Below are positions 4,672 to 55,051 of a stretch of 64,000 nt of DNA, piece by piece. The notes under the pieces were generated by a model. It was not told where the DNA came from. It saw only the letters and a program-made list of their open reading frames with translations, and made no database searches. Source of the DNA: Vampirovibrionales bacterium (GTDB lineage Bacteria; Cyanobacteriota; Vampirovibrionia; Vampirovibrionales; Vampirovibrionaceae); contig JAJCZA010000005.1 of assembly GCA_029262635.1 (NCBI GenBank), forward strand, positions 535,135 to 599,134. Direction: 5' to 3'. Position numbers and translations under genes: made by a program. Position 1 is the stretch's first letter. Every line of letters starts with the position of its first letter.

Positions 4672-4691
4672 GGGGGTAAATGTCCTGTTGG

Positions 4692-5585
4692 TTAAACCCG
4701 GGAGAAAACGCTTTCATTATAGCGCAACCCGTTCGGAGGTGTGACAGAGAAATGAGAAGGTATGACCGAGTGGGTTGATTTGGAAATGTGGGGGCGAAGC
4801 AAGGGACGGTGCCCAAATCCGTCGGAAGCAGTCTGTTGGAATGCCTGATAGGCCTTGTTATAAAAGGGGATGGCCAGGGGGGTGATGTGTTGTCCAAGCT
4901 GTTCGTATTTGTAATGAATTCCGTTTAAAATTCGATTGATCCGTTGTTTTTCATCCGGCGTGCTGATTAGTCCCGCTGAAATCCAATTTTTAAGGGCCTG
5001 GAGTAGTGGGGTTTTTTGATCCAGTTGATGGATTTTGAGCAAATCCAGAGTGGGCCAGTGGTTCGAGTTTAGGTGGCGAGATAAATAAGGGTAAAACGGA
5101 ATTTGGAAACTCTTCCAGAGGGTGGGGTTGTTAATCAGGGCGGTGGATAACCGGGTTAATGCCTGGTCTCGTTGTTCAGGGGAAAGGTGGTAGTCGGTTA
5201 TGCGTCCGAAAAAACGGGAAAAACTTAGGTCGGCAAACTCATTATTTTCCATCAGCTGATGGAATAGAGTGGCCTCTTTGGCGTCTTCACGGCACTCGAA
5301 ACGCAAGGTTCCATTGATGTGCAATTGCCAATAGGGCTTGGTTTGCCAAGTTTCTTTTTTCCAAATAATCAGATATAGAGTGTTGTTATTGGGCGCCCAT
5401 CCCATGGTCCATTCATTGGCCGGTAAGTTGTCATATAATAGGTTAATGGGGTCGTCGTATTCAGGTTTTAATCGATGCCAGCCTTTTTCCATCAGCTGAT
5501 GAAGGCACGACCGGGCTTCTTCGGAAGAGAAAAGAGGAGGTGTCTGTTTTTCAGGTAGGGTCGGAGTGGGAAAAAGGGTCATCAT
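4692..5585 (-). CDS. hypothetical protein (297 aa)
   Basis: long ORF, no motif recognised. Confidence 0.45.
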   Translation of the reverse strand: MMTLFPTPTLPEKQTPPLFSSEEARSCLHQLMEKGWHRLKPEYDDPINLLYDNLPANEWTMGWAPNNNTLYLIIWKKETWQTKPYWQLHINGTLRFECREDAKEATLFHQLMENNEFADLSFSRFFGRITDYHLSPEQRDQALTRLSTALINNPTLWKSFQIPFYPYLSRHLNSNHWPTLDLLKIHQLDQKTPLLQALKNWISAGLISTPDEKQRINRILNGIHYKYEQLGQHITPLAIPFYNKAYQAFQQTASDGFGHRPLLRPHISKSTHSVIPSHFSVTPPNGLRYNESVFSRV

Positions 5586-5678: not shown

Positions 5679-6365
5679 TTAAAAGGATAGGGGATTGACG
5701 GATGGTGGCGGCTCGATTGGGAGGGTTAGTCCGATTAGAGTGAGCAGGGTGGTGGTGATCGCACCACTGATTTGCAAGAAAAGAATCATCGCAACAGGAA
5801 GGATCGCAATCAGGCTTCGTTGCCAGCTTGCGTTGGAGTAGGCTTGCGTACCTAATGTCATGAGGGTTAGACTCCAAAGGGTGATGACGATCAGGGTGAC
5901 GACTTGAGTTATCATTAGGGCTGTGGTGTTCTGAATGAAAAAAAGAAGGGGGAAAAGAATAAGGTTGATCATAAGCAGGGAGGGTAAGGTGAAAAACAAA
6001 CATAACATGAAGACTTGTCGCCAATGAAGTGGTGCTTTAACCACGTGGCTGGTTCCCCAGAGAAAGAGAAACAGAACTGAAGGCCCCAGAATAAGGAGTT
6101 GCCAGGAGTGGATCAGCGTTTGAAAGTAGGTTGCTATAACTGAAAGAGTTTTCTTCCAAAGGTTTTGAGCTGTTATTTCAAGCCCATGGGTGGCCATGAT
6201 CTCGTGAAGAACGCTGAGTAAGAAGGTGATACCCAACATGCCAATCCATAAAGTCGCCAGTGTCTGCTTATTCCAATGATTGTTTTTATCTTTCTGAAAA
6301 AAACGGGAAGGGGCGATGAATAAATCCCGATAACCTTCGAGAACGGTTTGGCGTTTAATACACAT
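5679..6365 (-). CDS. polytopic membrane protein, Yip1-like topology
   Basis: soluble N-terminus then about 5 TM helices; last gene of the paa-like operon direction. Confidence 0.4.
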   Translation of the reverse strand: MCIKRQTVLEGYRDLFIAPSRFFQKDKNNHWNKQTLATLWIGMLGITFLLSVLHEIMATHGLEITAQNLWKKTLSVIATYFQTLIHSWQLLILGPSVLFLFLWGTSHVVKAPLHWRQVFMLCLFFTLPSLLMINLILFPLLFFIQNTTALMITQVVTLIVITLWSLTLMTLGTQAYSNASWQRSLIAILPVAMILFLQISGAITTTLLTLIGLTLPIEPPPSVNPLSF

Positions 6366-6377
6366 GACGAACTCGAC

Positions 6378-7598
6378 TTAAACCTTTTCAACAATCGTGG
6401 CAATGCCTTGTCCGACGCCAATACACATGGTGGCTAGACCGTAGCGACAATTGTCCCGGCGCATCATCTCGTAAATTAGGGTGGTCATGATTCTTGCCCC
6501 ACTACATCCTAGTGGATGCCCGAGTGCGATAGCGCCTCCGTTGACATTAATTTTAGAGACGTCGGCACCCAGCTCCTGAATACAAGCTAATGATTGAGCG
6601 GCGAAGGCCTCGTTGAGCTCAATAAGGTCAATTTGTTCCAATGTTAGTCCTGCCCGTTTTAAGGCTTTACGGGTGGCGGGTACGGGCCCCAATCCCATGT
6701 AGGCTGGATTAACCCCAGCAACTGACGTTGATCGAATACGAACCTTTGGGGTTAGTCCAAGTTCAAGCGCTTTCGCTTCTGACATAACGAGCAAGGCGGC
6801 GGCGCCATCGTTAATGCCGGATGAGTTTCCTGCCGTAACGCTTCCTCCCTCTTTAAATGCCGGTTTTAACGTGTGTAGTTTTTCCAACAGGGTGTCTGGG
6901 CGGGGATGCTCATCCGTATCCACAATAATGGGATCTTTCTTTTTTTGAGGAATAGTGACTGGAATAATTTCGTCTTTAAACCGGCCTTCGCTCATGGCTT
7001 TGCCCGCTTTCTGCTGACTATCAAAGGCAAACTGATCCTGCGCTTCTTGGGAGAGTTGAAATTTTTCGGCCACGTTTTCGGCTGTTTCGCCCATGCCGTA
7101 AGGGTAGTGCAATTGAGCCAGCTTCGGGTTGGTGAACCGCCAGCCGATGGTCGTATCAAAGAGGTCTGTCTTCCGGGAAAAAGCGGTGGGTGCCTTGGCC
7201 AGAACAAACGGTGCGCGGGTCATGCTTTCTACACCACCTGCAATGTAACACTCCGCCTCACCGGCTATAATGGCGTGGCTGGCCTGATTAATGGCCATAA
7301 GGCCTGAGCCACAGAGTCGGTTTACAGTGCCGCCAGCAATGGTTTCCGGGAGTTCGGCGAGTAGGACCGCCATCCGGGCCACGTTTCGATTGTCTTCGCC
7401 TGCTTGATTGGCGGCACCTAGAATCACGTCTTCAATGAGCGTTGGGTCCAGTTGGGGGTTACGCCGAACCAGTTCTTTCAGGACCAGAGCCGCTAAATCG
7501 TCTGGACGAACCGAGGCCAAGCTACCGGAAAATCGACCGACCGGGGTTCGGATAGCGTCAACAATGACGGGCGTGGTTTCCGGGGTGGTCGGGTTCAT
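6378..7598 (-). CDS. 3-oxoadipyl-CoA/3-oxoacyl-CoA thiolase (PaaJ/PcaF-like)
   Basis: thiolase signatures NRLCGSGL (active Cys), GGVESM, C-terminal GLATMCIGVGQG; start overlaps upstream gene by 4 nt. Confidence 0.9.
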   Translation of the reverse strand: MNPTTPETTPVIVDAIRTPVGRFSGSLASVRPDDLAALVLKELVRRNPQLDPTLIEDVILGAANQAGEDNRNVARMAVLLAELPETIAGGTVNRLCGSGLMAINQASHAIIAGEAECYIAGGVESMTRAPFVLAKAPTAFSRKTDLFDTTIGWRFTNPKLAQLHYPYGMGETAENVAEKFQLSQEAQDQFAFDSQQKAGKAMSEGRFKDEIIPVTIPQKKKDPIIVDTDEHPRPDTLLEKLHTLKPAFKEGGSVTAGNSSGINDGAAALLVMSEAKALELGLTPKVRIRSTSVAGVNPAYMGLGPVPATRKALKRAGLTLEQIDLIELNEAFAAQSLACIQELGADVSKINVNGGAIALGHPLGCSGARIMTTLIYEMMRRDNCRYGLATMCIGVGQGIATIVEKV

Positions 7599-8401
7599 GA
7601 CGAGGTTTCCTCCAGTTCGGTCTTGCTACCTTCGTAAATATAGAAACCTTCGCCGGTTTTAACACCAAGCTTGCCGGAGCCAGCCATCTGCTTGAGTAGA
7701 AGCACCGGACGGTAACGGTCTTCAAAATATTCGTTGACTAATGTGTCGAGAATCTGACAGATAACGTCGATACCGATTTTATCGGCCCATGCCAGTGGAC
7801 CTTCCGGGTAGTTCGTACCCAGCTTCATGGCGGTGTCAATATCTTCAGGGCTCGCCACGCCTTCCATTACGGCAGAAGCCGCCTCATTAACGAGCATAGC
7901 AAGCACTCTAGGGAGAACCAGTCCGGGGGTGTCCGTAATTTCATAAGCCTTGACCTGAAGGGATTGGAACAGATTTTTAGCCTTGGCTAGCGCTTCAGGG
8001 TCGGTGGCCTTGGTGGGCGCGAACTCAATAACGTGACGGCCTTGATAAAAGGCCAGCGGAGAGTACATGATGAGCCGGGAGATTACTTCTCTGTCAAAGA
8101 AGGGAGTATCATAGGTGGTTGCATAGCCTGAGGTGCTAATGCCTGATAAGAGAACAATGGGATGATGCTCTTCAGATAGGGCTTCCAGAAATTCTGGAAG
8201 ACTATGGTAGTCCATCCAGCCGTGATGGCAAATAATAACAAAGTCGGGCAGTTCATGAGCCTCTAGGGGTTCTTCCGGGATACTTTCCACATCGTCAATG
8301 TCATCGTAAATATGAACCTGATGTCCTGCCGTGCGACAGAGACTGAAAAAGGTTTGGGTAATCACATCCTGGGGCTTGCCCAGCAGAAAAATTTTACTCA
8401 T
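7595..8401 (-). CDS. 3-hydroxyacyl-CoA dehydrogenase-like protein with degenerate NAD-binding and catalytic motifs
   Basis: C-terminal 3HCDH dimerisation domain intact (PGLVLPRVLAMLVNEA...), but N-terminal GxGxxG replaced by LLGKPQD and the HFFNP catalytic-His region replaced by MYSPLAF. Confidence 0.65.
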   Translation of the reverse strand: MSKIFLLGKPQDVITQTFFSLCRTAGHQVHIYDDIDDVESIPEEPLEAHELPDFVIICHHGWMDYHSLPEFLEALSEEHHPIVLLSGISTSGYATTYDTPFFDREVISRLIMYSPLAFYQGRHVIEFAPTKATDPEALAKAKNLFQSLQVKAYEITDTPGLVLPRVLAMLVNEAASAVMEGVASPEDIDTAMKLGTNYPEGPLAWADKIGIDVICQILDTLVNEYFEDRYRPVLLLKQMAGSGKLGVKTGEGFYIYEGSKTELEETSS

Positions 8402-8427
8402 GGTAAGGGCTGAACTTTCTCGATGGT

Positions 8428-9324
8428 CTAGGCTTTCTTTGAGTCGTAGGTGTAAAATCCCTGATTGGTTTTTCGTCCCAACAGGCCGGCATCAACCATG
8501 CGACGTTGAATAATATGGGGTTTATAACGAGGTTCGTGGAAATAAGCTTCATAAACAGACTGAGTTACGGCGAAGTTGACGTCCAGTCCGATGAGATCCA
8601 TTAGCTCGAAGGGTCCCATCTTAAAGCCACCAGCTTCTTTTAAGACTTCATCAATGGTCTCATGAGATGTCGCTTGTTCTCCCAGAAGTCGGAGAGCTTC
8701 ACCGTAAAAGGGTCGAGCCACTCGGTTCACAATAAAACCCGGTGTGTCTTTGGCGATAACCGGGGTTTTACCGACGGCCTGAGCGAATACTTTTAAGGTC
8801 TCAATGATACGGGGATCTGTTCGTTCGCCCCGGATAATTTCAACGAGTTTCATCAGAGGCACTGGGTTAAAGAAATGGAGACCTGCTATTCGATCCGGAT
8901 TTTTGGTTGCGCCCGCAATTTCAGTGACGGAGAGCGACGAGGTATTGGAGGATAAAATTGTCCCGTCGGGAGCTAAGGCATCTAGCTCTTGAAAGATCTC
9001 TTTTTTGAGAGCCATGTTTTCCGGCACGGCTTCAATCACCAAATCGCACTGAGCCGTCTCTTTAAGCTTTAGTGTGGTGATCAGGTTTTCGTTGACCCGC
9101 TGAAGGTCATCGTCCGTTAGCTTGCCTCGGGCCTTTCCTTTGGCTAGTGAGGTTTCAATCTGGGTACGGCCCCGTTTGAGGAAGTCTTCCTTAATATCAA
9201 ACAGAACCACCTGAAACCCCTTGAGAGCAGAAATTTGGCCAATCCCTGCTCCCATCGTACCGGCGCCAACAATCCCGACCCGTTTAATGGTTTCAACAGG
9301 AGGGGTATCAGTTTTTTTGCTCAT
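8428..9324 (-). CDS. 3-hydroxyacyl-CoA dehydrogenase (PaaH/Hbd-type)
   Basis: GIVGAGTMGAGI Rossmann motif, HFFNPVPLMKLVEI catalytic region, C-terminal 3HCDH domain. Confidence 0.9.
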   Translation of the reverse strand: MSKKTDTPPVETIKRVGIVGAGTMGAGIGQISALKGFQVVLFDIKEDFLKRGRTQIETSLAKGKARGKLTDDDLQRVNENLITTLKLKETAQCDLVIEAVPENMALKKEIFQELDALAPDGTILSSNTSSLSVTEIAGATKNPDRIAGLHFFNPVPLMKLVEIIRGERTDPRIIETLKVFAQAVGKTPVIAKDTPGFIVNRVARPFYGEALRLLGEQATSHETIDEVLKEAGGFKMGPFELMDLIGLDVNFAVTQSVYEAYFHEPRYKPHIIQRRMVDAGLLGRKTNQGFYTYDSKKA

Positions 9325-10099
9325 AGTAGGGGATCCATTCCGGCATGGTCAGTCCTGCGGCCAATACCTTTTCTTCAACTTCCTGACGGTATTCCATGCG
9401 AACCACGTGGTTATCGCGTTTTTTTAGGCCTAGTTTTACGTAGGTCTGGCATCCAGGGGCGTTAGGTCGACCAAAGATGTTCATGACCCGAGGGTACCAT
9501 TTATTGAGCCCTTCCTGAAGCTCAACTTTGGTGTCTGGACTAGCGGCCAGCCGTTTGAACCAGGTATCTCCATGGACGACGTGCATCATTTCTTCCTTGA
9601 AAATGCTTTTGAGGCCGCGCATCCAAGGGGCGTAGCTTGATTCCAGCGTGTCTTCCAGTTGATGTCCGGCTCCTCGGTCCATAAGGAAGTTAAATAGAAT
9701 AAAATCAGTCCAGCTTTCGATGGGATAATAAAAAATATTCACCCGTTTATCTTGGGTTAGCCTTTCACTGGTCAGCTCTTGGCCCGAAGGCATTCGGAAA
9801 TGGTAGTCATGTTGCTTAATATAGCTTTCCACGTCCATGCCAAGTTCGGCCAGTAGATTAAACATAGCGTAAGCATGACGAATTTCGTCCTTGACGATTT
9901 GGGCGACCAACACTTTCTCGTGGATATCCGGGGCTTTCTCAATCCATGGAATATAACCATAAGCACCAGCTAGTTCAGAGTCTGCTTGTTGAAGCAGGAG
10001 GTTTGTCAGCGCTGTTCGATACTCTTCAGACATGTCGTTATTGGCTTCAATTTTTTCACCTGCGTTGATTTTTTCTACAAATTCTTCTGCGGTTACCAT
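9308..10099 (-). CDS. PaaA/PaaC-family ferritin-like diiron protein (lone copy)
   Basis: aligns by eye to PaaA core (YRTALTNLLLQQADSELAG / KDEIRH / EEMMHVVHG, ExxH pairs conserved); 263 aa, shorter than PaaA; no paaB/C/D/E nearby. Confidence 0.65.
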   Translation of the reverse strand: MVTAEEFVEKINAGEKIEANNDMSEEYRTALTNLLLQQADSELAGAYGYIPWIEKAPDIHEKVLVAQIVKDEIRHAYAMFNLLAELGMDVESYIKQHDYHFRMPSGQELTSERLTQDKRVNIFYYPIESWTDFILFNFLMDRGAGHQLEDTLESSYAPWMRGLKSIFKEEMMHVVHGDTWFKRLAASPDTKVELQEGLNKWYPRVMNIFGRPNAPGCQTYVKLGLKKRDNHVVRMEYRQEVEEKVLAAGLTMPEWIPYYEQKN

Positions 10100-10122
10100 G
10101 GTTTGGTTCTCCTTACGTTTAA

Positions 10123-10962
10123 TTATTTTCCAGTGAACACGGCTTCCCGTTTATCGAGAAATGCAGAAACCCCTTCCTGGTAATCGGTGGTCTGGCCAGC
10201 GATCTCCTGGAGGTGGGCTTCATAGTCCAGATAGTTCTCTAAATCTGAGGTTAGTCCCTTATTCATGGCGCGTTTAATTAAGCCAATGGCTTTAGTGGGG
10301 CCTTTTCCAAGCGTCTGAGCTAACACATTAGTCTCTGTTTTTAGGGTTTCTGCCGGGTAAATCCTGTTGACTAGCCCGTAATCGAGGGCTACTTCTGCTG
10401 AAATCTTATTACCCAGTAAAGCCAGCTCCATGGCACGCCCCATACCAACGAGGCGAGGCAACGTCCAACAAGCGCCTGAATCAGGGATCAACCCTACTTT
10501 GACAAAGGCCTGAATAAAACTGGCTTTCTCCGAAGCAATGCGCAAATCGCAGGCGAAAGCGATACTGGCACCCGCACCAGCGGCCACCCCATTAACCATG
10601 GCAATGACGGGTTTTTCTAGGGTGCGCAGTTTTTGGATAATCGGGCTATAGCGCTTTCGAATAGAGTCGCCTAGATGAGGACTGTCTCCGTTACTGGCGG
10701 TAACGCTACGACTTTGAAGATCTTGTCCGGCACAAAAGCCTCGTCCGGCGCCCGTGAGGATAATACAGCGAACTGCTTGATTTCGCTCGGCGGATTTTAA
10801 TGCCTTTTGTAATTCGAAGCTGAGTTCGTCATTAAAAGCGTTCAGGCAGTCAGGGCGATTTAAGGTTAGGGTTAGCACACCCTCCGCATTGAGTTCTTCG
10901 AGTAACCACTGGGTTTCAGTTTTTGCTTGAGTCATTTCGATGCCTCCTATTGATGCTGCCAT
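10123..10962 (-). CDS. enoyl-CoA hydratase/isomerase, PaaG-like
   Basis: crotonase fold, LTLNRPDCLNAF, GFCAGQDL oxyanion-hole motif. Confidence 0.8.
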   Translation of the reverse strand: MAASIGGIEMTQAKTETQWLLEELNAEGVLTLTLNRPDCLNAFNDELSFELQKALKSAERNQAVRCIILTGAGRGFCAGQDLQSRSVTASNGDSPHLGDSIRKRYSPIIQKLRTLEKPVIAMVNGVAAGAGASIAFACDLRIASEKASFIQAFVKVGLIPDSGACWTLPRLVGMGRAMELALLGNKISAEVALDYGLVNRIYPAETLKTETNVLAQTLGKGPTKAIGLIKRAMNKGLTSDLENYLDYEAHLQEIAGQTTDYQEGVSAFLDKREAVFTGK

Positions 10963-11738
10963 TCGGCTGGACGCTTTTCCATGAAGGCGGTCATGCCCTC
11001 TTTCTGGTCTTGTGAGGCAAACAGCAGGTAGAACAGCTTGCGTTCGTAATCGAGTCCGCCTTCAATGGTGGTATCAAATGATTTTAAGATGGCTTCTTTC
11101 GCCAGTTTTACGGCGACACCGGGTTTGTTCGCAATGGTTTTAGCGAGGACTTTGGCTTCATCCAATACCACTTCATCGGGCACGACTTTCGTGATGAGTT
11201 CCATGTCGTAGGCTTCCTGGGCTCCAAACATGCGACCCGTAAGAATCAACTCCATAGCACGGGCTTTACCGATGGCGCGAGTCAATCGTTGGGTACCTCC
11301 CGCACCAGGAATAACACCAATACTGATTTCCGGCTGACCAAATTTAGCGCCTTCGCCGGCAATAATCATGTCGCACATCATGGCCAACTCACAGCCGCCA
11401 CCTAAGGCGAACCCATTAATAGCGGCAATGATCGGTTTCTTCAGTTTGCGGACTCGATCCCATCGAGCCAGTTGATCAATGAGCAACATGTCCACAGCGG
11501 ATTTATCAGCCATTCGCTTGATATCAGCCCCGGCGGCAAAGGCTTTGGCGTTGCCCGTCACAATCAGGCACCCGATGGTGTCATCGTTGTCAAACGTTTC
11601 CAGGGCGTCCACCAGTTCGACCATTAAGTCCGGGCTGATAGCATTCAGCACATCGGGCCGATTAAGCTGGACAATGCCGACCCGGCCGTCTTTTTGGGTC
11701 AAAATATATTGATATTCCGTTGTGGTAGTGGTTGCCAT
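10947..11738 (-). CDS. enoyl-CoA hydratase (crotonase/PaaF-like)
   Basis: GIVQLNRPDVLNA, AFAAGADIK, GGGCELAMMCD motifs. Confidence 0.85.
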   Translation of the reverse strand: MATTTTTEYQYILTQKDGRVGIVQLNRPDVLNAISPDLMVELVDALETFDNDDTIGCLIVTGNAKAFAAGADIKRMADKSAVDMLLIDQLARWDRVRKLKKPIIAAINGFALGGGCELAMMCDMIIAGEGAKFGQPEISIGVIPGAGGTQRLTRAIGKARAMELILTGRMFGAQEAYDMELITKVVPDEVVLDEAKVLAKTIANKPGVAVKLAKEAILKSFDTTIEGGLDYERKLFYLLFASQDQKEGMTAFMEKRPAEWQHQ

Positions 11739-11763
11739 CGTCTATACCCTCTTTCGGTAAATG

Positions 11764-12627
11764 CTATTCCAACAGTTCTTTTCTTAGCATGCGGTAGTCG
11801 GGCTTGCGTTTTTCGACAAATGCCCGGGTGCCTTCGCCGGTTTCCAGACTGCCGGAGTGGATGGTCAGCCAGTCTCGGGCATGACCAATGGTCATGCCCC
11901 AGGAAAAATCCCGCCAGAAGTTTAGTTGTTGTTTGGTGTAGCGGGTGCATTCCGGTAGTTTATTTAGAAGCCTATCGGCCATGGCTTCAACGGCTGTGTC
12001 CAGTTGTTCTCGTGGCACTACTTGATTCACTAGGCCCCACTCTAAAGCTGTTCCAATCGGGATTTCTTCACACAGAAGCAGGATTTCCCGTGCCCGACGA
12101 TCGCCCACAATTAAAGGCAACCATTGGGTAGCGCCACCGGCAGCAACCGACCCATGAGCCGAGCCCACCTGGCGGATGTAAGTGTCCTCCACGGCAATGG
12201 CTAAGTCACAAGCCATGTTCAGTTCGTTGCCGCCGCCGACGACGATGCCATTAATCCGGGCAATAGTTGGTTTGCCAACGTTTCGGAGCTTTTCGTGCAT
12301 GTCAATGAACCCGCCCATCCACTTCCAGTAGTCACGCGGACGGTCCAGAAAGTTGGCGGCTTGTTCTTTCAGATCGGCACCAGTACAAAAAGCTCGTTCC
12401 CCGGCTCCCGTATAAATTACCACACCGACTTCATCATCCCACGAGGCGTCTTCCGTGGCTCGAATGATTTCTCGAAAAGTGAGAAAGTCAAAGGCGTTTA
12501 GGCTTTTCGGGCGGTTTAGAGTAATTTTGGCTCGCCCATTGTATTTTTCATAAATAATATTCTGAAACCCCATTTCTTCAGGTTTTTCAGCACCTAACAT
12601 GGGGTGTGTCTTACGGGTTGTTGTCAT
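11764..12627 (-). CDS. crotonase-superfamily enzyme, MenB/BadI-like subgroup
   Basis: ITLNRPKSLNAF, AFCTGADLKEQ; longer, MenB-like C-terminus. Confidence 0.7.
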   Translation of the reverse strand: MTTTRKTHPMLGAEKPEEMGFQNIIYEKYNGRAKITLNRPKSLNAFDFLTFREIIRATEDASWDDEVGVVIYTGAGERAFCTGADLKEQAANFLDRPRDYWKWMGGFIDMHEKLRNVGKPTIARINGIVVGGGNELNMACDLAIAVEDTYIRQVGSAHGSVAAGGATQWLPLIVGDRRAREILLLCEEIPIGTALEWGLVNQVVPREQLDTAVEAMADRLLNKLPECTRYTKQQLNFWRDFSWGMTIGHARDWLTIHSGSLETGEGTRAFVEKRKPDYRMLRKELLE

Positions 12628-12632
12628 GAGCG

Positions 12633-12968
12633 TTAATAAACTCCTGCGCCTTCAATGGTGGATACTTCGGATGTCACCATGGTGACGTATTTTGAGGCAA
12701 AGCTCATAAGGTTATCCCCGGCAGCCTGACCTTCTGGTGATTTTAACGCGTTTTTTAGTGCGTCCATACTATCAAAGGTGAGTTCAGCGACCATATAATG
12801 AGGTAGGTCACCGCCCATCATGTTTTTAGTGAGCTTGGATACTTCAACACGAGCTAATCCTGGCATTTTTTGAGCTAATGGCAAGTGGGTCTCAAAGTAT
12901 TGGCGGTCAAAATCTTCCGGATTATCCGGTTGGGAGTAGAAAGCAAAGAGTTTTGCGGCTTTTGACAT
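12633..12968 (-). CDS. EthD/Dabb-like small alpha+beta barrel protein
   Basis: 111 aa; first gene of the operon; SD GGAGGG upstream of ATG 12968; tentative family call. Confidence 0.45.
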   Translation of the reverse strand: MSKAAKLFAFYSQPDNPEDFDRQYFETHLPLAQKMPGLARVEVSKLTKNMMGGDLPHYMVAELTFDSMDALKNALKSPEGQAAGDNLMSFASKYVTMVTSEVSTIEGAGVY

Positions 12969-13108: not shown

Positions 13109-14416
13109 TTATTTGGAATAGCTTTCGGCCACCAGCTCAATGGGGTGTGCTATGCGCATGGGGTTGGCGTTTTCCTGAAGCCCTTTGGTAATTTGAAGAA
13201 GGCAACCAGGGTTACCCGTGACCAGTGTTTGAGCTTGAGTCGCTTCGATGTGCCGAATTTTTTCCGCCAAGATGTCATTACTCAGCTCCGGGTGTTCCAA
13301 ATTATAGATGCCCGCACTGCCGCAGCAAAAAGCAGCGTCTTTTAATGGGAGGAGGGTGAGTCCTTCGATCTGGTGGAGAACGTTTTCAGGTTCGTTAATA
13401 ATACCCTGAGCATGGTGTAGGTGGCAGGCGGCATGGTAAGCTACGGTTTGGGGTATGGGAAGGCGACAAGGCTTTAAGGGTTTTTTGGCTAATAGAGCCA
13501 TGATATCTACGGTTTTTTCTGAGAAAAGGCGAGATTTTTCAGCGTAGATTCCGTCATTGGCCAGTAGTTTCGTATAGTCTTTTAGCGTGGATCCGCATCC
13601 GGCCGAATTAGTGATAACCCAGTCGGGTTGGGATCTTAAAATGGAAAGCACGTTTTTCCGAGCCAGTTTTTTTGCAATGTCGTCTTCCCCGCCATGGTAG
13701 GCCAGTGCACCACAACAGGTTTGTTCTGGGAGTGTGACGTAATAACCGTTATTGACCAATGCCTTAATGGTCGCCCAATGGACAGAGTTATACATGACAT
13801 CCATGATACAGCCTGTGAATAAAGCGACACGTTCGTGTTCAGGGTTTCCAAACGACATGCCGATGTTAAATGGTTTGTGTTGGGGGATGGGAGGAATAAG
13901 CGCTTCGTAATGTTGAATTAGTGGGAGGAGGCTTAGGACATTTGAAAATCGGACAAGACGTTGAAGTCCGGCTTTTTGATACAGACGAAGCCAGAAGGCC
14001 CCAAACTGAAGTAAGTTGGAGTTGGGTAGAACTGTTTGAAAGAAAAAGCGCTTGAGATGGCGAATGAACGGATTTTTCTGGGTTAAGAACATCTTTTGGG
14101 ACTGATGAAGAATATCGCCGTAGGGCACCCCGGAAGGACAAGCTGTTTCACAGGCGAGGCAACCGAGGCACTGGCTCAGGTGAGGTTCTATTTGCTTTGG
14201 CTGGAGATGCTCGTTGGGCTCGTCTGATTCGTTTTTAGCGTCCTGTAACATGTGCTTTAACAGGTAAAGTCGGCCTCGAGGAGATTCTACCTCGGAGCCA
14301 GTTACCTTATAAGTGGGGCAAACGGGTAGGCAGAAACCACAGTGAATACACGATTTCAACGAATTCAGCAGACTGTTTGTGGAAGGTAGAGGTGTTGAGG
14401 GTTCAGAAAAGGTCAT
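13109..14416 (-). CDS. glcF: glycolate oxidase iron-sulfur subunit GlcF-type (2x[4Fe-4S] + two CCG domains)
   Basis: CIHCGFCLPVCP and CLGCLACETACP ferredoxin motifs; CCG-domain motifs TCCGALAYHGG and AFCCGSAG. Confidence 0.85.
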   Translation of the reverse strand: MTFSEPSTPLPSTNSLLNSLKSCIHCGFCLPVCPTYKVTGSEVESPRGRLYLLKHMLQDAKNESDEPNEHLQPKQIEPHLSQCLGCLACETACPSGVPYGDILHQSQKMFLTQKNPFIRHLKRFFFQTVLPNSNLLQFGAFWLRLYQKAGLQRLVRFSNVLSLLPLIQHYEALIPPIPQHKPFNIGMSFGNPEHERVALFTGCIMDVMYNSVHWATIKALVNNGYYVTLPEQTCCGALAYHGGEDDIAKKLARKNVLSILRSQPDWVITNSAGCGSTLKDYTKLLANDGIYAEKSRLFSEKTVDIMALLAKKPLKPCRLPIPQTVAYHAACHLHHAQGIINEPENVLHQIEGLTLLPLKDAAFCCGSAGIYNLEHPELSNDILAEKIRHIEATQAQTLVTGNPGCLLQITKGLQENANPMRIAHPIELVAESYSK

Positions 14417-15690
14417 GAGCTGGACGATTCCTTTGTGTGAGAAGGGCTTGAAAAGACCAGGTGACGAGAGTGTAAGATATTATGCGGATCATACAGGGCT
14501 TTTAGTTGGTACATCAAGGCTTGAGCGACTGGGTCGTTAGGCAGGTTTAGTTTTTGAGTTAGGCTGAGAAAATCGGAGGGAAAGTCCAGTAGCTGGAGAT
14601 GCCCGCCTTGGTTCTGGGCTAATTTAGCCAGTTGCTTTAAAGGTTGTTTGAGTTTGGTCAATTGGGGCATATTGTCGGGCTGCCATATCAGGTGTACAAA
14701 CCCAGCGGCAAGACGAAGCTGGATGGGGTAGCTTTTGACTTCCGGGAACAAGGACTCAATTTCTTTTAGTGTTTTTCGTAAGGCGGACAAACCTTTGGGT
14801 ATGGTCAGACGAAGGAGGTGGGACTGATCCAGATGTGTCCGCTTTAGAAAAGATCGGGTTGTCTGGCTTGAGGTCGGTTTTGGGTTGCCCAGACAAGCTT
14901 TCAGTTCAGCCTCCAGCGTGCTGAATGAGTTTTTGGTTCCCTGCGCTCGGATCCAGAGTGCCCAGGATTCTTTTTGAAATAGTTCGCAGGCCGTGAGTTG
15001 GTGTCGGTGTTGATGAAGCCAGGGGAGCAAATCTTCCAGCCACGGGTGATGGGGTGACGAAACATAAAAGCCCCAGTCTTGAGTGGCCTCGGGTAGTGGA
15101 GCTAGTTTGAGGGTGACAGCGGTAATGACTCCCAGCGTATGATGGCTCCCGGTGTAGAATTTATTGAGGTCATATCCGGTGACGTTTTTAACCACCTCGC
15201 CACCGTAATGGGTGATTTCTCCATCGGGTGTTACCATTTCCAGGCCCAGCACGTAATCTCGAGGGTAACCGCCTGAAAGCCCTGTTTCCGCCGCTGGGCG
15301 GTCCTGAGCGATGACATCGGCGAGTAAGAGATCGTCCGGGTAGCTTAAGGGGAACTGTTGGCCTTGACTCGCGAGGGTTTGTCTTAGTTCACCCATGGTA
15401 ATGCCGGTTTCTACGGTAATGATTAGGTCATTTATTCGGTGGTTTCTAATGGTTTTTAGGTGTTTCATGTTCATCCAGAGGGGGTGTTCCATTAGTAGAG
15501 CGTCGTTATAGTTTAGAGAGAGAGGCCTCTTTTGTTGAACGGATATATGGAGGAGCTGGGCAACTTGTTCCACCTTGTTGGGGGTGAGAATGAACCCTTC
15601 GGTCTGGATGTCACCAATGGATAATGGTTGAATGACGGATGAGCTTTCCAGGGCTTCCAGTTCTTGGGTTGAAAGATCCATTAAATCCAT
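14413..15690 (-). CDS. glcE: glycolate oxidase FAD-binding subunit GlcE-type (with about 150-aa C-terminal extension)
   Basis: PCMH-type FAD-binding domain; 4-nt overlap with glcF, 10-nt overlap with glcD. Confidence 0.75.
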   Translation of the reverse strand: MDLMDLSTQELEALESSSVIQPLSIGDIQTEGFILTPNKVEQVAQLLHISVQQKRPLSLNYNDALLMEHPLWMNMKHLKTIRNHRINDLIITVETGITMGELRQTLASQGQQFPLSYPDDLLLADVIAQDRPAAETGLSGGYPRDYVLGLEMVTPDGEITHYGGEVVKNVTGYDLNKFYTGSHHTLGVITAVTLKLAPLPEATQDWGFYVSSPHHPWLEDLLPWLHQHRHQLTACELFQKESWALWIRAQGTKNSFSTLEAELKACLGNPKPTSSQTTRSFLKRTHLDQSHLLRLTIPKGLSALRKTLKEIESLFPEVKSYPIQLRLAAGFVHLIWQPDNMPQLTKLKQPLKQLAKLAQNQGGHLQLLDFPSDFLSLTQKLNLPNDPVAQALMYQLKALYDPHNILHSRHLVFSSPSHTKESSSS

Positions 15691-17090
15691 GCGCCTCCTG
15701 TGGTTAATAAGGGATTGCTGATGGAAAGGTGTGTTTCACCACAACCAGCTCGGATAGGAAATATTTTAAGGGGGTTAGACAGTTGCTGAGGGTCGAAAGC
15801 GGCTTTAATTTGTTTCATCTTGTTCAAGTCGGCCTCGGAAAACAGACGGGACATATATTTGGATTTTTCAATGCCAATGCCGTGTTCGCCACTCAGGACA
15901 CCGCCTGCTTGAAGGCAAACGTCTAAAATCTCCTCACCTCCTTTTAAAATCCGTTGGAGCATATCAGCATCGTCCGGGTCGAACAGGATATTGGGGTGTA
16001 GGTTGCCGTCGCCGGCATGGAAGACATTGCCGATAAGGATTTGGTGCTTTTTGCCAATGGCCAAAATCTTTTTCAGTACAGAGGTGAGCTCACTGCGTGG
16101 AATCACCGTATCGTGAAGATAAAAGGCGGGTTGGAATCGTCCGTAAGCGGCAACTGCACCTTTTCGAGCGGCCCAAATGGCTTGCCGATCTTCGGCGGTC
16201 TGAGCGGAACGGGTCTGCTGGGCGTTATTCTCCGAGAGGATGGCCATGAGTCGGTCTTCCTGATCCAGAACAACATGGAGGGTTCCGTCCAGCTCAATGA
16301 GAAGAACGGCTTCGCTGTCTTCAGGAAAGCCAATGTCATAAGCCTGATTAACGGCTTTGACCGTAAAGGCATCCATAAATTCCAGTGCGGATGGGATAAG
16401 GCCGCTGGCGATAATCTGAGATACAGCGTTTCCTGCCGATTCAATGGTGGAAAACGTCGCGAGATAAGCACGAATTTCTGTGGGCTTGGGGGTTAGTTGA
16501 ACGGTGGCTTGGGTGATAATGCCCAGCGTGCCTTCGGATCCGACTAACAGACCAATTAAATTCAAACCATGAGAAGAACGGGTTTTTCCACCGAGTCGGG
16601 TTATTTTACCATCTGGAAGGACGACTTCCAGTGCCAGAATATGATCCGTGGTGACGCCGTATTTAATACAGTGGATGCCACCAGCATTTTCCGCGATATT
16701 CCCGCCGAGGGTGCAGGCAGACTGGCTCGAGGGGTCGGGGGCATAGAACAGCCCGGTTGCCTCTAATGCTTGATTTAGGTGGGCGTTAACGACGCCCACT
16801 TCCACCGTGGCGGTGTGGTTCTCCGTGTCGATTTCCAGAATCTGATCCATGCGGTTTAGGCTGATGAGAACGCCGCCCTTTAAGGGAAGCGCACCGCCGG
16901 ATAGCCCGGTTCCCGCACCCCGAGCTGTAAAAGGGATTTTATGGGTGTGGCAAAAGCTAACCACCTGACTGACTTCTTGTGTGGTCTTGGGGAGTACCAC
17001 AATTTCCGGGGCGTTTTTTATCAGCAGGCAGGCGTCACATTCGTAGGCAATAAGTTCTTCCGGGCCGTCAAGAACAAAGCGGTGACCCAC
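15681..17090 (-). CDS. glcD: glycolate oxidase subunit GlcD (FAD-linked oxidase)
   Basis: FAD_binding_4 plus FAD-oxidase C-terminal domain (GTLGIIT, HAGDGNLHPNI). Confidence 0.9.
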   Translation of the reverse strand: MGHRFVLDGPEELIAYECDACLLIKNAPEIVVLPKTTQEVSQVVSFCHTHKIPFTARGAGTGLSGGALPLKGGVLISLNRMDQILEIDTENHTATVEVGVVNAHLNQALEATGLFYAPDPSSQSACTLGGNIAENAGGIHCIKYGVTTDHILALEVVLPDGKITRLGGKTRSSHGLNLIGLLVGSEGTLGIITQATVQLTPKPTEIRAYLATFSTIESAGNAVSQIIASGLIPSALEFMDAFTVKAVNQAYDIGFPEDSEAVLLIELDGTLHVVLDQEDRLMAILSENNAQQTRSAQTAEDRQAIWAARKGAVAAYGRFQPAFYLHDTVIPRSELTSVLKKILAIGKKHQILIGNVFHAGDGNLHPNILFDPDDADMLQRILKGGEEILDVCLQAGGVLSGEHGIGIEKSKYMSRLFSEADLNKMKQIKAAFDPQQLSNPLKIFPIRAGCGETHLSISNPLLTTGGAWI

Positions 17091-17294
17091 GATTTTTCGG
17101 AGATGGGCAACGCTAGCTTTTAATGTAATGGTGATGATAAAACGCTCCAGGACAAAATGCGAAGGGGTGAATCTATTATAGAAGAAAACGCCGTGAGGAA
17201 AATACGAGGTGTAAGTGAGGTGTGTTGGAGGTCTCTGTTTGGTGATAAGATAAAGGCCAATCGTTGGAATGATAAAAATGGAGAGGGTATTAAT

Positions 17295-17849
17295 ATGACC
17301 ATGACAGGAAGTGAATTAAGCGATAAGCGAGTCCTGATTTTTGCGGGTCCTGACTATGAGGATTCCGAGTTAATGTATCCTTTGCTCCGTTTTAAAGAGG
17401 CGGGAGCTGAGGTAAAAGTGGCCGGGCTAGGTGAAAAGACCTACCAAGGCAAAAAAGGAACTACCGTGGATGTAGACGGTAGTGCGGAAGATTTTGTTGT
17501 CGGCTATTGGGATTTAGTCGTAATTCCCGGTGGTTGGGCGCCGGATAAGATGCGGATGAATGAAGCCGTGCTGAAAATTGTTCGAAAAGCGGTGGAGTCA
17601 GACAATCTGGTGGCGGCTATCTGTCATGCGGGTTGGGTTTTGGTTTCGGCGGATGTGGTTCAAGGCAAAAAAGTGACCAGCTATCGGGCGATTAAAGATG
17701 ATATGGTGAACGCCGGTGCCACATGGGTGGATGCGGAAGTGGTGGTGGACGGTAATCTAGTGACGTCTCGAACGCCGGCGGATTTACCGGCTTTTTGTCG
17801 TACGTTGGTTAGCCTGATGACTCAAACGCTTGCTGTACCGACTGCTTGA
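17295..17849 (+). CDS. DJ-1/PfpI-family protein
   Basis: AAICHAGWVL nucleophile-elbow Cys motif; start moved to ATG 17295 with SD GGAGAGGG upstream (ORF track starts at 17157). Confidence 0.85.
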   Translation: MTMTGSELSDKRVLIFAGPDYEDSELMYPLLRFKEAGAEVKVAGLGEKTYQGKKGTTVDVDGSAEDFVVGYWDLVVIPGGWAPDKMRMNEAVLKIVRKAVESDNLVAAICHAGWVLVSADVVQGKKVTSYRAIKDDMVNAGATWVDAEVVVDGNLVTSRTPADLPAFCRTLVSLMTQTLAVPTA

Positions 17850-19493: not shown

Positions 19494-19634
19494 CTATTTG
19501 AGTGCCTAATCGATCATTAAAAAATGACAAATCAAACACAGACAAAAATGGTTTGTTTTGATAATCAGAAGAAGAATTTTAACGGATACAGATCCGTGTG
19601 CAGATAGAGATTGAGAGAGTTTAAGGGAAATACT

Positions 19635-21956
19635 ATGATTAATCCCCTTTTTAACAACTACCAAACAGCGAGATCCTTCCAGATGAATCCGGGAGTGTAT
19701 CAGCTTCCGACCCAGGCCCAGCCGCTCGCTTTTCAGCAGCCTCAGTTTCAAGGCCAACAGGCTGTGGGGCAACAAGCTTTAGGGCAGCCTCAAGGGGCTC
19801 AAATGATGAACATGATGCTCCAAATGATGAGCATGTTGCTTCAAGTGCTTCAACAACAATTTAATCCGGGAGGCCAAAAACCTTTAGGCCAACAGCCAAA
19901 TGCTGCTGCAGGCAATGCGGGTAATGCAGGTAATGCAGGTAATAGTGGCGCTCTTGGTGGAGCTCCTGCTGCTGCCGGTAATGCAGGTAACGCGGGCAAT
20001 AGTGGTGGTATTTATGGCACCCCTGCCGCTGCAGGCAATGCGGGTAATGCAGGTAACGCAGGTAATAGTGGTGCTCTTGGTGGAGCTCCTGCCGCTGCCG
20101 GTAATGCAGGTAACGCGGGCAATAGTGGTGGTATTTATGGCACCACTGCCGCTGCAGGCAATGCGGGTAACGCAGATAATGGTGGAGCTCCTGTTGATGC
20201 AGGTAACGCAGGTAATGGTGCTGGTGTTTATGATGCTCCCGGTGGTGCTTACGGTGCTCCCGGCGGAGCCCCTCCTGCAGGTGATGCAGGCAATGGTGTT
20301 GGTAATGACGGTACGCAACCTTATCTACAGACCGACGCCGAAGATGCCGTGGATTATATCTTAGCTCAGACCCAAGGTGGTACCAGTGGCGTAAACGAAG
20401 CCATTGAAGGTCGCTTTGCCCGGGACGGTTCCCGATTTGCAACGGCAGGTGCTAATGAGTTTGATGCGGCGATCGTGTCGAATTATGCGGCCCAATTTAA
20501 AGCGTTTGCTCTTGGAAAGGATCCTAAATTCGATCCGGGTGTTGATGATGTTAGAACCATTGCCAATAACATTACCGAAGCGCAACAAGTTCAATTTACA
20601 CCGGAAGCGGAACTCTTATCCAAGGTGGCTGCGGTTTACCGGGGCGAGATGACCGGTAGCGTAAACGAGTATGACAACAATGCCCTGAGAAATGTTCTAC
20701 TTCAGTTTAACCGGGGTGACATTGCCAATACAGACGGTGTCGGCCAGTTTGACGTTCAGTCAATTGGTGGTGTGGTCAAAATGCTCAATGAAGAGCAAGA
20801 CCCGGCGCTTCGTCAGCAAATGCTTCAGCAGGTTTTTGACTTCCAGGGGAACTCTCCCTCCAGTCCAAGTGGAGCGGTTCCTCAGCTCGGTGCTTATCAG
20901 CGAGCCGTTGATGTGGTTCGAAACGGTACCATTGATGGCTTATTGAATAACTATGCCAATGGTGTTCAGACCACCCAGCCTCTTTACAATGGCCCGGCAA
21001 ATCCAAATGGCGAGCCTGTTTCAGGGGCAGTTAACCGGAATATTGATTTTCAGGCCCTGAGTACGCAAGATCGAACTGCTCTTGGACTCAATGACCGTGA
21101 TCGAGCTGTTCTCCATCTATATGGTCGTCAAATGATTTCTCAAGGGTTTCAGGATGGCGGTATCTACACTAATATTCTGGATAACAACACGGGTACCGCT
21201 GCGGAACAACAATTAGTTGCGGAACTTCGGGCAAGAGATCAAGCCCAGTTTGGTGTGGATACTGGTGTTGCGTTGGATGAAGAGTTTTTTGCTCTCCATC
21301 AACGACTCACGGGTGAAGATTTATCGACCCGATATGCCAACCGGCAGGTCAATGCTTCACAAGGTGCCATTAATATTGTTAACGATCTGGATCAGCTCCA
21401 GCAAAAGACAGGTTTATCCACGTTTGAGCAGTCTATCTTAAGACTCTATGGCCACGAACCCTTAATGAACGGCGGAAAAATTGATGGCTCCAGTCTCGCT
21501 TATACCATTGCCAACAGTAATGCATTAGATAGTGACGCAAAATCGGGTGGAAATGGTATTGATACTCAAGCTCAGACGTTACTGGAGCTTGATCTTGCTC
21601 GGGATGGTGTTGTCAACGGCGATGCGTTAAGCATTGGTTTTACTGGCGCATTAGATAAGCTTTATCTGGGTACAGAGGGTGTGACCGAACAAGGTCTGCA
21701 GCAAACCGTTATGAATCAAGCCGCTCAACTTGGCCGGACCACTCAACAAATTGGTCAAGATGTGTCTCGGGGTGTCGATGCTGCCATTGGTCAAGCAACT
21801 CAACTCGTTAAGGATCACCCAGTCACTTCCGTTGCCGCTGCAGGTGGACTAGCCGCCGCTACAGCTGTATGCCCTTACCTTGGTGGGTTAGGCGCATCGG
21901 GTGTCGCCGCAACATTTGGTGGCCCTCAGGCCGGAGGTAATGGTATTCCAGTCTAA
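19635..21956 (+). CDS. large low-complexity protein: Q-rich N-terminus, (GNA)n tandem repeats, about 580-aa C-terminal region of unknown function; no signal peptide
   Basis: ATG 19635 with SD AAGGGA 6 nt upstream (ORF track start 19611 is TTG); long ORF; antisense His/Tyr-rich ORFs are artefacts. Confidence 0.7.
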   Translation: MINPLFNNYQTARSFQMNPGVYQLPTQAQPLAFQQPQFQGQQAVGQQALGQPQGAQMMNMMLQMMSMLLQVLQQQFNPGGQKPLGQQPNAAAGNAGNAGNAGNSGALGGAPAAAGNAGNAGNSGGIYGTPAAAGNAGNAGNAGNSGALGGAPAAAGNAGNAGNSGGIYGTTAAAGNAGNADNGGAPVDAGNAGNGAGVYDAPGGAYGAPGGAPPAGDAGNGVGNDGTQPYLQTDAEDAVDYILAQTQGGTSGVNEAIEGRFARDGSRFATAGANEFDAAIVSNYAAQFKAFALGKDPKFDPGVDDVRTIANNITEAQQVQFTPEAELLSKVAAVYRGEMTGSVNEYDNNALRNVLLQFNRGDIANTDGVGQFDVQSIGGVVKMLNEEQDPALRQQMLQQVFDFQGNSPSSPSGAVPQLGAYQRAVDVVRNGTIDGLLNNYANGVQTTQPLYNGPANPNGEPVSGAVNRNIDFQALSTQDRTALGLNDRDRAVLHLYGRQMISQGFQDGGIYTNILDNNTGTAAEQQLVAELRARDQAQFGVDTGVALDEEFFALHQRLTGEDLSTRYANRQVNASQGAINIVNDLDQLQQKTGLSTFEQSILRLYGHEPLMNGGKIDGSSLAYTIANSNALDSDAKSGGNGIDTQAQTLLELDLARDGVVNGDALSIGFTGALDKLYLGTEGVTEQGLQQTVMNQAAQLGRTTQQIGQDVSRGVDAAIGQATQLVKDHPVTSVAAAGGLAAATAVCPYLGGLGASGVAATFGGPQAGGNGIPV
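19902..20186 (+). repeat. in-frame tandem repeat, 123-bp unit (41 aa AAAGNAGNAGNAGNSGALGGAPAAAGNAGNAGNSGGIYGTP) x2.3, near-identical copies
   Basis: units 19902-20024, 20025-20147, partial 20148-about 20186; only a few synonymous/one T-to-P differences. Confidence 0.85.
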
Positions 21957-43908: not shown

Positions 43909-43933
43909 TGATGTTGATTCCTTTATTCTGATT

Positions 43934-45723: not shown

Positions 45724-45801
45724 TTGATTCGCCTCCATTGCAGAAAACTCTGGATTATTTGTTTGTTATTAGTTTAGAGTTAAAAGCTATTAGTTACTTA
45801 C

Positions 45802-54995: not shown

Positions 54996-55051
54996 CTATT
55001 CAGCCCTCTTTTAATTATTGCCTAATTTTCTGCGAGTCCTGTTTATAAGGT

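Follow-up and report, generated by a model that had tools for sequence, protein, structure and literature searches.

A gene cluster that encodes a lone PaaA-like, ferritin-type di-iron protein has been identified in a 64-kb stretch of the Vampirovibrionales contig JAJCZA010000005.1 (hereafter the window, whose numbering is used for all coordinates unless another locus is named). In this cluster the single gene occupies the position that paaABCDE hold in the known pathway of phenylacetate catabolism. On balance, the sequence comparisons suggest a streamlined operon for ring oxidation and beta-oxidation of phenylacetyl-coenzyme A (phenylacetyl-CoA), or of arylacetyl-CoAs, in which one gene would replace PaaABC(D)E. 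The protein itself is, with slightly better than even confidence, a putative stand-alone phenylacetyl-CoA 1,2-epoxidase. The gene content and order, the conserved metal ligands and substrate motif, the fold and the pattern across genomes are observations, and from them we infer the substrate, the oligomeric state, the electron donor and the activity. The recurrence of the lone form as an apparent replacement in at least nine bacterial groups points to an undescribed minimal form of oxygenase.

The PaaA-like di-iron protein

The protein is 29% identical to Escherichia coli PaaA. It reaches the curated cutoff neither of the PaaC model (TIGR02158; 57, cutoff 133) nor of the BoxB model (TIGR03225; 41, cutoff 499). 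The original prediction, made from the bare sequence, had noted that both ExxH pairs are kept, and this is the case: E72/H75 and E170/H173 are present, together with E42 and D141. These six di-iron ligands correspond to E42, E72, H75, D126, E155 and H158 of E. coli PaaA and are invariant in 22 members of the clade described below. E. coli PaaC, in contrast, carries C, L, Q and A at ligand positions. Two further residues, K118 and F123, align to K103 and F108 of E. coli PaaA, which position the phenylacetyl group (PMC4498308); the phenylalanine is invariant and the lysine nearly invariant across the clade.

Several features set the protein apart from PaaA. Judging by the alignment gaps, it lacks the final ~50 residues of PaaA and has 15 extra residues inserted ahead of the Lys/Phe motif; R142, H146, Q147 and D150 are further invariant residues of the lone clade. 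Every canonical PaaA sampled has the Glu49-Lys68 lysine bridge (E-E-K at positions 42, 49 and 68), along which electrons have been proposed to travel from PaaE (PMC4498308); the lone clade invariably has Tyr49 and Ile68 at these positions.

An AlphaFold2 (AF2) model built from a 22-sequence alignment has a predicted local distance difference test (pLDDT) value of 93.7. Its best fold match in the PDB is PaaA, at a template modelling (TM) score of 0.82-0.84, followed by SSO1313 (4MUD), PaaC, BoxB (TM 0.66) and aldehyde-deformylating oxygenase. A neighbour-joining tree was computed for 119 PF05138 proteins, made up of 50%-identity representatives, chosen clade members and the PaaA and PaaC of E. 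coli; it rests on a trimmed alignment and carries no support values. In this tree the protein is a member of a tight clade whose site signature is EYIEHDRHQDEEHH. This lone clade is separate both from canonical PaaA (signature EEKEHDG...) and from the ligand-less E. coli PaaC. It had been considered that the protein might cluster within ordinary PaaC; the tree places it in its own clade apart from PaaC. By these comparisons it is a ligand-complete relative of PaaA and not of PaaC or BoxB.

Domain fusions were considered as a clue to a reductase and set aside: the longer PF05138 proteins are PaaA-PaaB, PaaX-PaaA or nucleotidyltransferase fusions only.

Organization of the cluster

Nine intact minus-strand open reading frames (ORFs), closely spaced or overlapping, occupy positions 5679-12968, and the run from EthD to the thiolase spans 6378-12968 (Table 1). 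The successive intergenic gaps from EthD to Yip1 are 5, 25, -16, 23, -17, 26, -4 and 12 nt. Gene families were assigned by Pfam and NCBIfam profile scores against curated cutoffs, and identities to the E. coli K-12 Paa proteins by tblastn. Within the tight run, the start of the N-terminal half of PaaH overlaps the stop of the PaaA-like gene by 17 nt, the thiolase shares a 4-nt ATGA overlap with the gene before it, and the PaaG-like gene has a second possible start at 10935, giving 270 aa. There is no room for a hidden small partner ORF between EthD and the thiolase, where the largest gap is 26 nt.

The original prediction described eight genes. All eight are intact and their families were correctly named, but the same range holds a ninth ORF, encoding a Yip1-domain protein, which is found at this position only in the nearest relative (locus L010, 37% identity). 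The three predicted crotonases are likewise present, although in the order BadI-like, PaaF-like and PaaG-like. The gene called a degenerate 3-hydroxyacyl-CoA dehydrogenase (HCDH) does contain an HCDH C domain, but it is the C-terminal half of a PaaH split into two ORFs and consists of a reduced Rossmann domain and the second 3HCDH C domain. The PaaH profile score (362, cutoff 669) is below its cutoff because the gene is split. The label of a "lower" pathway understates the cluster, as PaaG and the third crotonase belong to ring opening.

The identical cluster occurs on an independent public Logan contig (L001) and the same gene order in 18 Vampirovibrionales genomes, so the arrangement is not a product of chance. 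The phenylacetyl-CoA reading is based in part on the identities of PaaG, PaaJ, both halves of PaaH, PaaF and PaaI to their E. coli counterparts (Table 1). The BadI/MenB-like crotonase is a candidate ring hydrolase, by sequence, for oxepin-CoA or for a cyclic beta-keto side product. The "oxepin_alt" model gives 114, 177 and 206 for the three crotonases, none of which reaches its cutoff of 300. A role of the BadI/MenB-like protein as the MenB of menaquinone synthesis was rejected: its score is far under the cutoff, and the genome has an MqnC equivalog (NCBIfam; 41314-42411, plus strand; 467, cutoff 428), which indicates the futalosine route to menaquinone.

Table 1. Positions and profile scores of the cluster genes and of associated features (window coordinates unless a locus is named)
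Feature	Position	Strand	Score (curated cutoff); identity to E. coli protein
EthD-family protein, 111 aa	12633-12968	-	TIGR02118 91.1 bits (30.5); Pfam PF07110 46.5 (22)
BadI/MenB-like crotonase	11764-12627	-	best NCBIfam: badI 199.8 (467.6), menB 180.5 (342.7)
PaaF-like enoyl-CoA hydratase	10947-11738	-	NF007239 PaaF 307 (371); PRK05862 354 (396); 43% PaaF
PaaG-like crotonase (1,2-epoxyphenylacetyl-CoA isomerase type)	10123-10962	-	TIGR02280 334.9 (345.15); 52% PaaG
PaaA-like ferritin-type di-iron protein, 263 aa	9308-10099	-	PF05138 PaaA_PaaC 131.5 bits (28.5)
PaaH N-terminal catalytic half (3-hydroxyadipyl-CoA dehydrogenase type)	8428-9324	-	3HCDH_N + 3HCDH; 46% PaaH residues 4-289
PaaH C-terminal half	7595-8401	-	3HCDH C domain only; 44% PaaH residues 351-467
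PaaJ/PcaF-type 3-oxoadipyl-CoA thiolase	6378-7598	-	pcaF TIGR02430 579 (597); 59% PaaJ
Yip1-domain membrane protein, final gene of the tight run, 12 nt past the thiolase	5679-6365	-	PF04893 33.6 bits
PaaI (hydroxy)phenylacetyl-CoA thioesterase	22409-22855	-	TIGR02286 141.9 (118.9, passed); 38% PaaI
GlcD/GlcE/GlcF-like 2-hydroxyacid dehydrogenase genes	13109-17090	-	glcD 509 (568); GlcF 262 (333); GlcE 102 (284)
DUF1858/ScdA_N-like ORF, examples	L003 10825-11055; L087 10877-11101

Absent and unlinked paa genes

The whole window was searched by tblastn with the E. coli K-12 Paa proteins (E<=0.01). PaaB, C, D, E, K, X, Y and Z have no match anywhere in the 64 kb, and neither a CoA ligase nor an aldehyde dehydrogenase of any kind is present there. 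The predicted absence of PaaB, C, D and E, of the ligase and of the ring-opening aldehyde dehydrogenase is thus borne out for the window. The same queries succeed on two plasmids, one from Deinococcus and one haloarchaeal, where they detect PaaB, C and D (E 1e-10 to 1e-39); since this positive control detects distant PaaB, C and D, the negative results in the window and in the loci below are meaningful. The PaaI-like thioesterase, expected about 10 kb away, passes the curated PaaI threshold and lies 9.4 kb from the cluster, unlinked to it (tblastn match 22436-22822).

Distribution and neighbourhood of the lone clade

Among the matches listed by a word-indexed search, 120 are close homologues with 53-91% identity, mostly metagenomic, and when one genome per GTDB species is scanned, relatives are encoded in 428 stretches. 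Neighbourhoods (+/-10 kb) were counted in the best 80 of these 428 stretches (53-78% identity), with neighbours annotated by tblastn using a limited set of reference proteins. These 80 loci span at least nine groups: Vampirovibrionales, Sericytochromatia/Tanganyikabacteria, Elusimicrobiota, Rokubacteria/Methylomirabilota, Bacteroidota, Kryptoniota, Kapaibacteria, Acidobacteria and Chloroflexota, together with one cultured isolate, Tumebacillus lacus DT12. A plasmid collection holds no close relative, its best match being 33% identical. On plasmid pT136a of Rhizobium sp. T136, an extra PF05138 gene (L092 8001-8729) is located between paaE and paaZ of a complete paaX-J-A-B-C-D-E...Z-Y cluster.

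None of the 80 loci has a tblastn match to PaaB, PaaC, PaaD or PaaE. A PaaG-like gene is present in 60 of the 80 and stands directly upstream of the PaaA-like gene in 57; the N-terminal half of PaaH is found in 63 (directly downstream in 47) and its C-terminal half in 45. Less constant are the PaaF-like gene (53/80), an aldehyde dehydrogenase (43/80), the thiolase (32/80), EthD (22/80) and the BadI-like crotonase, which is paired with EthD (19/80). A PaaK-type ligase lies directly upstream in seven loci (Rokubacteria type), and in six of these its identity to E. coli PaaK is 48-52%; the Rokubacteria ligase scores 522 against the PaaK model (cutoff 646).

Three layouts can be distinguished, in which X denotes the lone di-iron gene: (i) (GlcDEF-FlK-)EthD-BadI-like-PaaF-PaaG-X-PaaH-PaaH'-thiolase(-ORF-aldehyde dehydrogenase) in Vampirovibrionales, Sericytochromatia and some Bacteroidota; (ii) aldehyde dehydrogenase-PaaF-PaaG-X-...-PaaH in Elusimicrobiota; (iii) PaaK-X-(secretin-domain ORF in L056)-PaaI in Rokubacteria. 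The Tumebacillus operon (L087) reads PaaX-FlK-EthD-PaaG-X-DUF1858-PaaH-PaaH'-thiolase, and its PaaX passes the TIGR02277 equivalog cutoff (268, cutoff 265). PaaX responds to phenylacetyl-CoA and, in the canonical pathway, the first substrate of PaaG is the product of PaaA (PMC4498308, PMC9007349); the associations with PaaX and PaaG therefore indicate phenylacetyl-CoA as the likely substrate.

The Tumebacillus cluster continues (L087 13995-19968) with an aromatic-amino-acid-dehydrogenase-like gene, whose best match is the tryptophan dehydrogenase ScyB, under cutoff, and with genes for 2-oxoacid dehydrogenase E1a, E1b, E2 and E3. Judged by their families, these genes could provide a ligase-free route from phenylalanine to phenylacetyl-CoA; they could equally be an adjacent branched-chain operon. 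In an Acidobacteria metagenome-assembled genome (L028 9995-18490), the neighbourhood consists of LysR, a DHDPS-family protein, an aldehyde dehydrogenase, a second ferritin-like (Phenol_Hydrox-like) protein, a 2x[4Fe-4S] ferredoxin, a LigB dioxygenase, an ABM protein, a thiolase and a second aldehyde dehydrogenase.

Proposed mechanism

In the proposed mechanism, the 263-aa protein would bind a carboxylate/histidine di-iron centre and act as a homodimer, with a second copy in the place that PaaC takes in the PaaA-PaaC pair. A homodimer is expected by analogy with that pseudo-symmetric pair. Two electrons would be supplied by a housekeeping ferredoxin or flavodoxin instead of a dedicated PaaE, an expectation that draws on the analogy with acyl-acyl carrier protein (ACP) desaturase and aldehyde-deformylating oxygenase. 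Both are stand-alone ferritin-like di-iron enzymes that use general ferredoxin and serve as precedents, as does BoxB, a single-subunit CoA-ester epoxidase. The enzyme would use O2 to epoxidise the 1,2 bond of phenylacetyl-CoA, and the adjacent PaaG-like isomerase would convert the epoxide to oxepin-CoA. The ring would then be opened hydrolytically by one of the other crotonases, and the semialdehyde oxidised by an aldehyde dehydrogenase encoded elsewhere in the genome. PaaI would be a safety valve hydrolysing surplus phenylacetyl-CoA. The later steps are modelled on the known phenylacetate pathway (PMC9007349).

A broader reading, which we put forward tentatively as possible rather than probable, concerns the clade as a whole. 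It may be a self-contained minimal CoA-ester epoxidase, homodimeric and free of bridging, structural and dedicated reductase subunits, and may represent the simplest, possibly ancestral-like PaaA/PaaC branch of the bacterial multicomponent monooxygenases. Such an enzyme would be the main means of phenylacetyl-CoA ring attack in Vampirovibrionales, Sericytochromatia, Elusimicrobiota, Rokubacteria, some Bacteroidota and others, perhaps assisted by a DUF1858/ScdA_N protein in some lineages.

Weighing of the alternatives

Several points weigh against a stand-alone epoxidase. The PaaA model gives the protein 118.1 (TIGR02156), under the cutoff of 280. With Y49 and I68 in place of the lysine bridge, the sequence makes no other electron route evident, and no reductase, ferredoxin, Rieske protein or rubredoxin is conserved near the clade across the 80 loci, two from Acidobacteria excepted. 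In those two loci the lone-clade gene is part of another aromatic cluster, whose members include LigB, a further ferritin-like protein and a ferredoxin. Many of the Elusimicrobia carriers may be anaerobes. The window is without a CoA ligase and without the aldehyde dehydrogenase that the nearest relative carries at the same position, and paaBCDE, paaK or an aldehyde dehydrogenase may sit outside the 64 kb. Finally, E. coli needs each of paaA-E in vivo (PMC4498308), from which a lone subunit would be a large departure.

A rival reading is a split pathway, in which ordinary paaABCDE, paaK and a PaaZ-type ring opener lie elsewhere in the genome and the lone protein is an accessory, acting for example on substituted phenylacetyl-CoAs or on the reactive epoxide. 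The view is limited to 64 kb of the genome and the pathway is already partly dispersed, PaaI being 9.4 kb off and the aldehyde dehydrogenase missing here and present in relatives. The Rhizobium sp. T136 plasmid likewise combines an extra, non-canonical PF05138 protein with a full paaABCDE set. That protein, however, belongs to a different, ligand-degenerate clade (E72 to K, D141 to G), and was for this reason rejected as irrelevant to the question of replacement. Moreover, in 80 of 80 loci the lone gene takes the paaABCDE slot beside PaaG, PaaK or PaaX and is never accompanied by PaaB, C, D or E, and the conservation of the clade at 53% identity or more across phyla fits a core function. A split pathway is thus considered distinctly unlikely. 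The first option of the original prediction, a new kind of di-iron oxygenase that would work on a CoA thioester as a single component, is supported by the same comparative evidence, namely its own ligand-complete clade and the place of that clade in paa-type clusters, with no PaaB-E within 10 kb, in 80 of 80 loci.

Alternatively, the same chemistry could be directed at another acyl-CoA (benzoyl-, hydroxyphenylacetyl-, alicyclic or aliphatic), the product of which would be processed by the crotonases, the dehydrogenase and the thiolase. All paa-type models but PaaI score under their curated cutoffs in the window, one crotonase resembles BadI/MenB, a type that cleaves cyclic beta-ketoacyl-CoAs, the aldehyde dehydrogenase of relatives is not PaaZ-like, the Acidobacteria context differs and the Rokubacteria ligase remains under the PaaK cutoff. 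Nevertheless, the PaaG-, PaaJ- and PaaH-like proteins share 46-59% identity with the E. coli enzymes, equivalog thresholds are passed by PaaX (Tumebacillus) and PaaI (window), the PaaA residues that position the phenylacetyl group are conserved, and the similarity to BoxB is weak (41 bits). Another substrate therefore seems unlikely. The original prediction had offered a non-phenylacetate substrate as one of two options; it is disfavoured by the PaaK-type ligases beside relatives and the threshold-passing PaaX beside one of them, by PaaI-type thioesterases in the vicinity, by the almost constant adjacency of PaaG-type isomerases and by the retained counterpart of the Lys103/Phe108 motif. It is highly improbable that the protein is a non-catalytic, PaaC-like ferritin-type protein with a structural, iron-handling or regulatory function, in a cluster degrading only aliphatic dicarboxyl-CoAs such as adipyl-CoA. 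The same Pfam family does include the PaaC-type proteins, which are non-catalytic, a reductase gene is missing from the vicinity, and NCBI labels some clade members "PaaI", an old name for PaaC. Unlike in E. coli PaaC, however, the six metal ligands and many residues lining the active site are invariant across phyla; the PaaA model score is twice the PaaC score, and the association with PaaG, whose first pathway substrate is the epoxide product of PaaA, is near-universal.

If the stand-alone epoxidase reading is true, a one-gene enzyme would show which parts of PaaABCE are dispensable, would offer a tractable model for electron delivery to di-iron centres and would be a compact catalyst for dearomatising epoxidation. 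Recent surveys use PaaA and PaaC as conserved pathway markers and describe only "PaaA-PaaC only" partial modules; carriers of the lone form would be scored as incomplete where both serve as markers (PMC13186573). Such scoring would hide aromatic-acid catabolism in mostly uncultured groups, including the non-photosynthetic relatives of cyanobacteria. With the cultured carrier Tumebacillus lacus DT12, the question is open to experiment.

Accessory and neighbouring genes

The EthD protein is an accessory protein and not the missing partner of the di-iron protein. Its AF2 model (pLDDT 92) has a dimeric alpha/beta-barrel (DABB) fold closest to BH0200 (2ftr, TM 0.85), with further matches to 4-methylmuconolactone methylisomerase, SnoaB and olivetolic acid cyclase; PaaB is not among its top 50 fold matches. 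A role as PaaB analogue or obligate partner was rejected, as the fold is that of DABB isomerases, cyclases and cofactor-free oxygenases and the gene occurs in only 22 of the 80 loci. The FlK-EthD-crotonase module also exists without a PaaA-like gene. Thus L095 (7593-9174) carries FlK thioesterase-EthD-crotonase and L093 (8001-13698) EthD-crotonase-crotonase-thiolase-aldehyde dehydrogenase-ELFV dehydrogenase, in both cases with no PaaA-like gene within 8 kb. It may be speculated that EthD, the BadI-like crotonase and the thioesterase act as a module that opens the oxepin ring or clears cyclised side products.

In Tumebacillus and in 21 of 24 Elusimicrobia loci, a DUF1858/ScdA_N-like ORF of ~75 aa comes directly after PaaH or after the di-iron gene. 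In some loci it has a stop/start overlap, and in some it continues in frame after PaaH with no stop between. The Cys pair is lost in about half of these ORFs, and a hidden Markov model (HMM) search of the window and of all the Vampirovibrionales loci detects none. ScdA_N domains are found together with di-iron repair proteins, and by this analogy the ORF may be a lineage-specific helper of the di-iron protein.

The GlcDEF-like genes directly upstream of EthD (Table 1) are found in 10 of 18 Vampirovibrionales loci and in none of the 62 others. Between GlcF and EthD lie a terminator-like hairpin (13098-13083) and a promoter-like site (13021-12993), from a scan that as a whole was no richer in such signals than shuffled sequence. 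The GlcDEF-like genes are probably a unit separate from the paa cluster. They are divergent from a DJ-1/PfpI gene (17157-17849), a pairing also seen on the independent contig L001. The two together would be consistent with a route that detoxifies glyoxal or methylglyoxal and then oxidises glycolate or D-lactate. The glyoxalase products of DJ-1/PfpI would be the substrates of the GlcDEF-like genes, for which this pairing is the better explanation. As the missing reductase in general they were rejected, being neighbours in Vampirovibrionales only, scoring near glycolate oxidase and having the divergent DJ-1/PfpI pairing.

At the other end of the cluster, the nearest relative (L010) has the order thiolase-Yip1-ORF297-aldehyde dehydrogenase-LptC. 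In the window, only 20 nt (4672-4691) separate ORF297 from LptC, so the aldehyde dehydrogenase has been lost from this slot. The aldehyde dehydrogenase of the relatives is closest to phenylacetaldehyde, betaine-aldehyde and HpaE-type dehydrogenases and not to PaaZ. ORF297 itself (297 aa, 4692-5585) has no Pfam or NCBIfam match; it comes after the thiolase in eight Vampirovibrionales loci and between thiolase and aldehyde dehydrogenase in six of those eight.

Other features of the window

From reading of their translations, the remaining genes of the window are taken to be housekeeping genes (ClpC, GlnA, IspG, IleRS, PheST). A four-gene cluster on the minus strand (43249-46124) resembles those for metallophores of the ribosomally synthesised and post-translationally modified peptide type, with all scores under curated cutoffs. 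Its precursor (95 aa) has a signal peptide and CGSDKCGKDK-type repeats and matches HvfA best; the partners are an MNIO/DUF692 maturase (BufB 303, cutoff 310), an HvfC-like protein and a YceI protein. A second, separate pair of 3-hydroxybutyryl-CoA dehydrogenase (428, cutoff 408) and acetyl-CoA acetyltransferase is located at 54099-56233 (minus strand), and a 781-aa ORF with no Pfam or NCBIfam match at 19611-21956 (plus strand).

Comparison with known systems

Searches of the full-text literature, in a coverage that leaves most subscription journals outside, found no lone or orphan PaaA-type enzyme, no EthD with PaaA and no phenylacetate catabolism in these phyla. The closest known system is PaaABC(D)E of E. 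coli and Pseudomonas (PDB 3PW1, 4IIT), with which the lone protein shares the PF05138 family, the fold (TM 0.82-0.84), the six ligand positions and the Lys/Phe motif. The downstream partners PaaG, F, H, J and I are the same, and PaaK and PaaX are found in relatives. However, the PaaA-like protein is only 26-30% identical, has no PaaB-E nearby in the window or the 80 loci, and lacks the lysine bridge. Variants of the pathway without PaaZ are known, which employ the aldehyde dehydrogenase PacL and a crotonase-type oxepin-CoA hydrolase (PMC9007349, citing Teufel 2011; Price 2022). They resemble the relatives of the cluster in having three crotonases and a separate aldehyde dehydrogenase; in contrast to the lone clade they still use paaABCDE, and no crotonase of the window reaches the "oxepin_alt" cutoff.

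In the benzoyl-CoA 2,3-epoxidase BoxAB, the single di-iron subunit BoxB epoxidises an aromatic CoA thioester, and a crotonase-family ring-cleaving enzyme and an aldehyde dehydrogenase follow. Because BoxB does so, a one-subunit oxygenase for such chemistry is feasible, and in its economy of subunits the lone protein would resemble BoxB, while in function it would be nearest to PaaA. BoxB differs from the lone protein in length (about 470 aa against 263 aa), in sequence (41 bits against a cutoff of 499) and in fold (TM 0.66), and its dedicated Fe-S flavoprotein reductase BoxA is encoded beside it, whereas none is conserved near the lone clade. Acyl-ACP desaturase and the cyanobacterial aldehyde-deformylating oxygenase are also small four-helix-bundle di-iron proteins without dedicated partner subunits, but they have other substrates and reactions, TM values of 0.5-0.6 and no detectable sequence relationship. 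SSO1313 of Sulfolobus solfataricus (PDB 4MUD, "PAA degradation-like protein"), with 235 aa, is apparently a stand-alone PF05138 protein as well. It is the second-best match after PaaA in both fold and sequence, although at 22-23% identity it is placed outside the lone clade.

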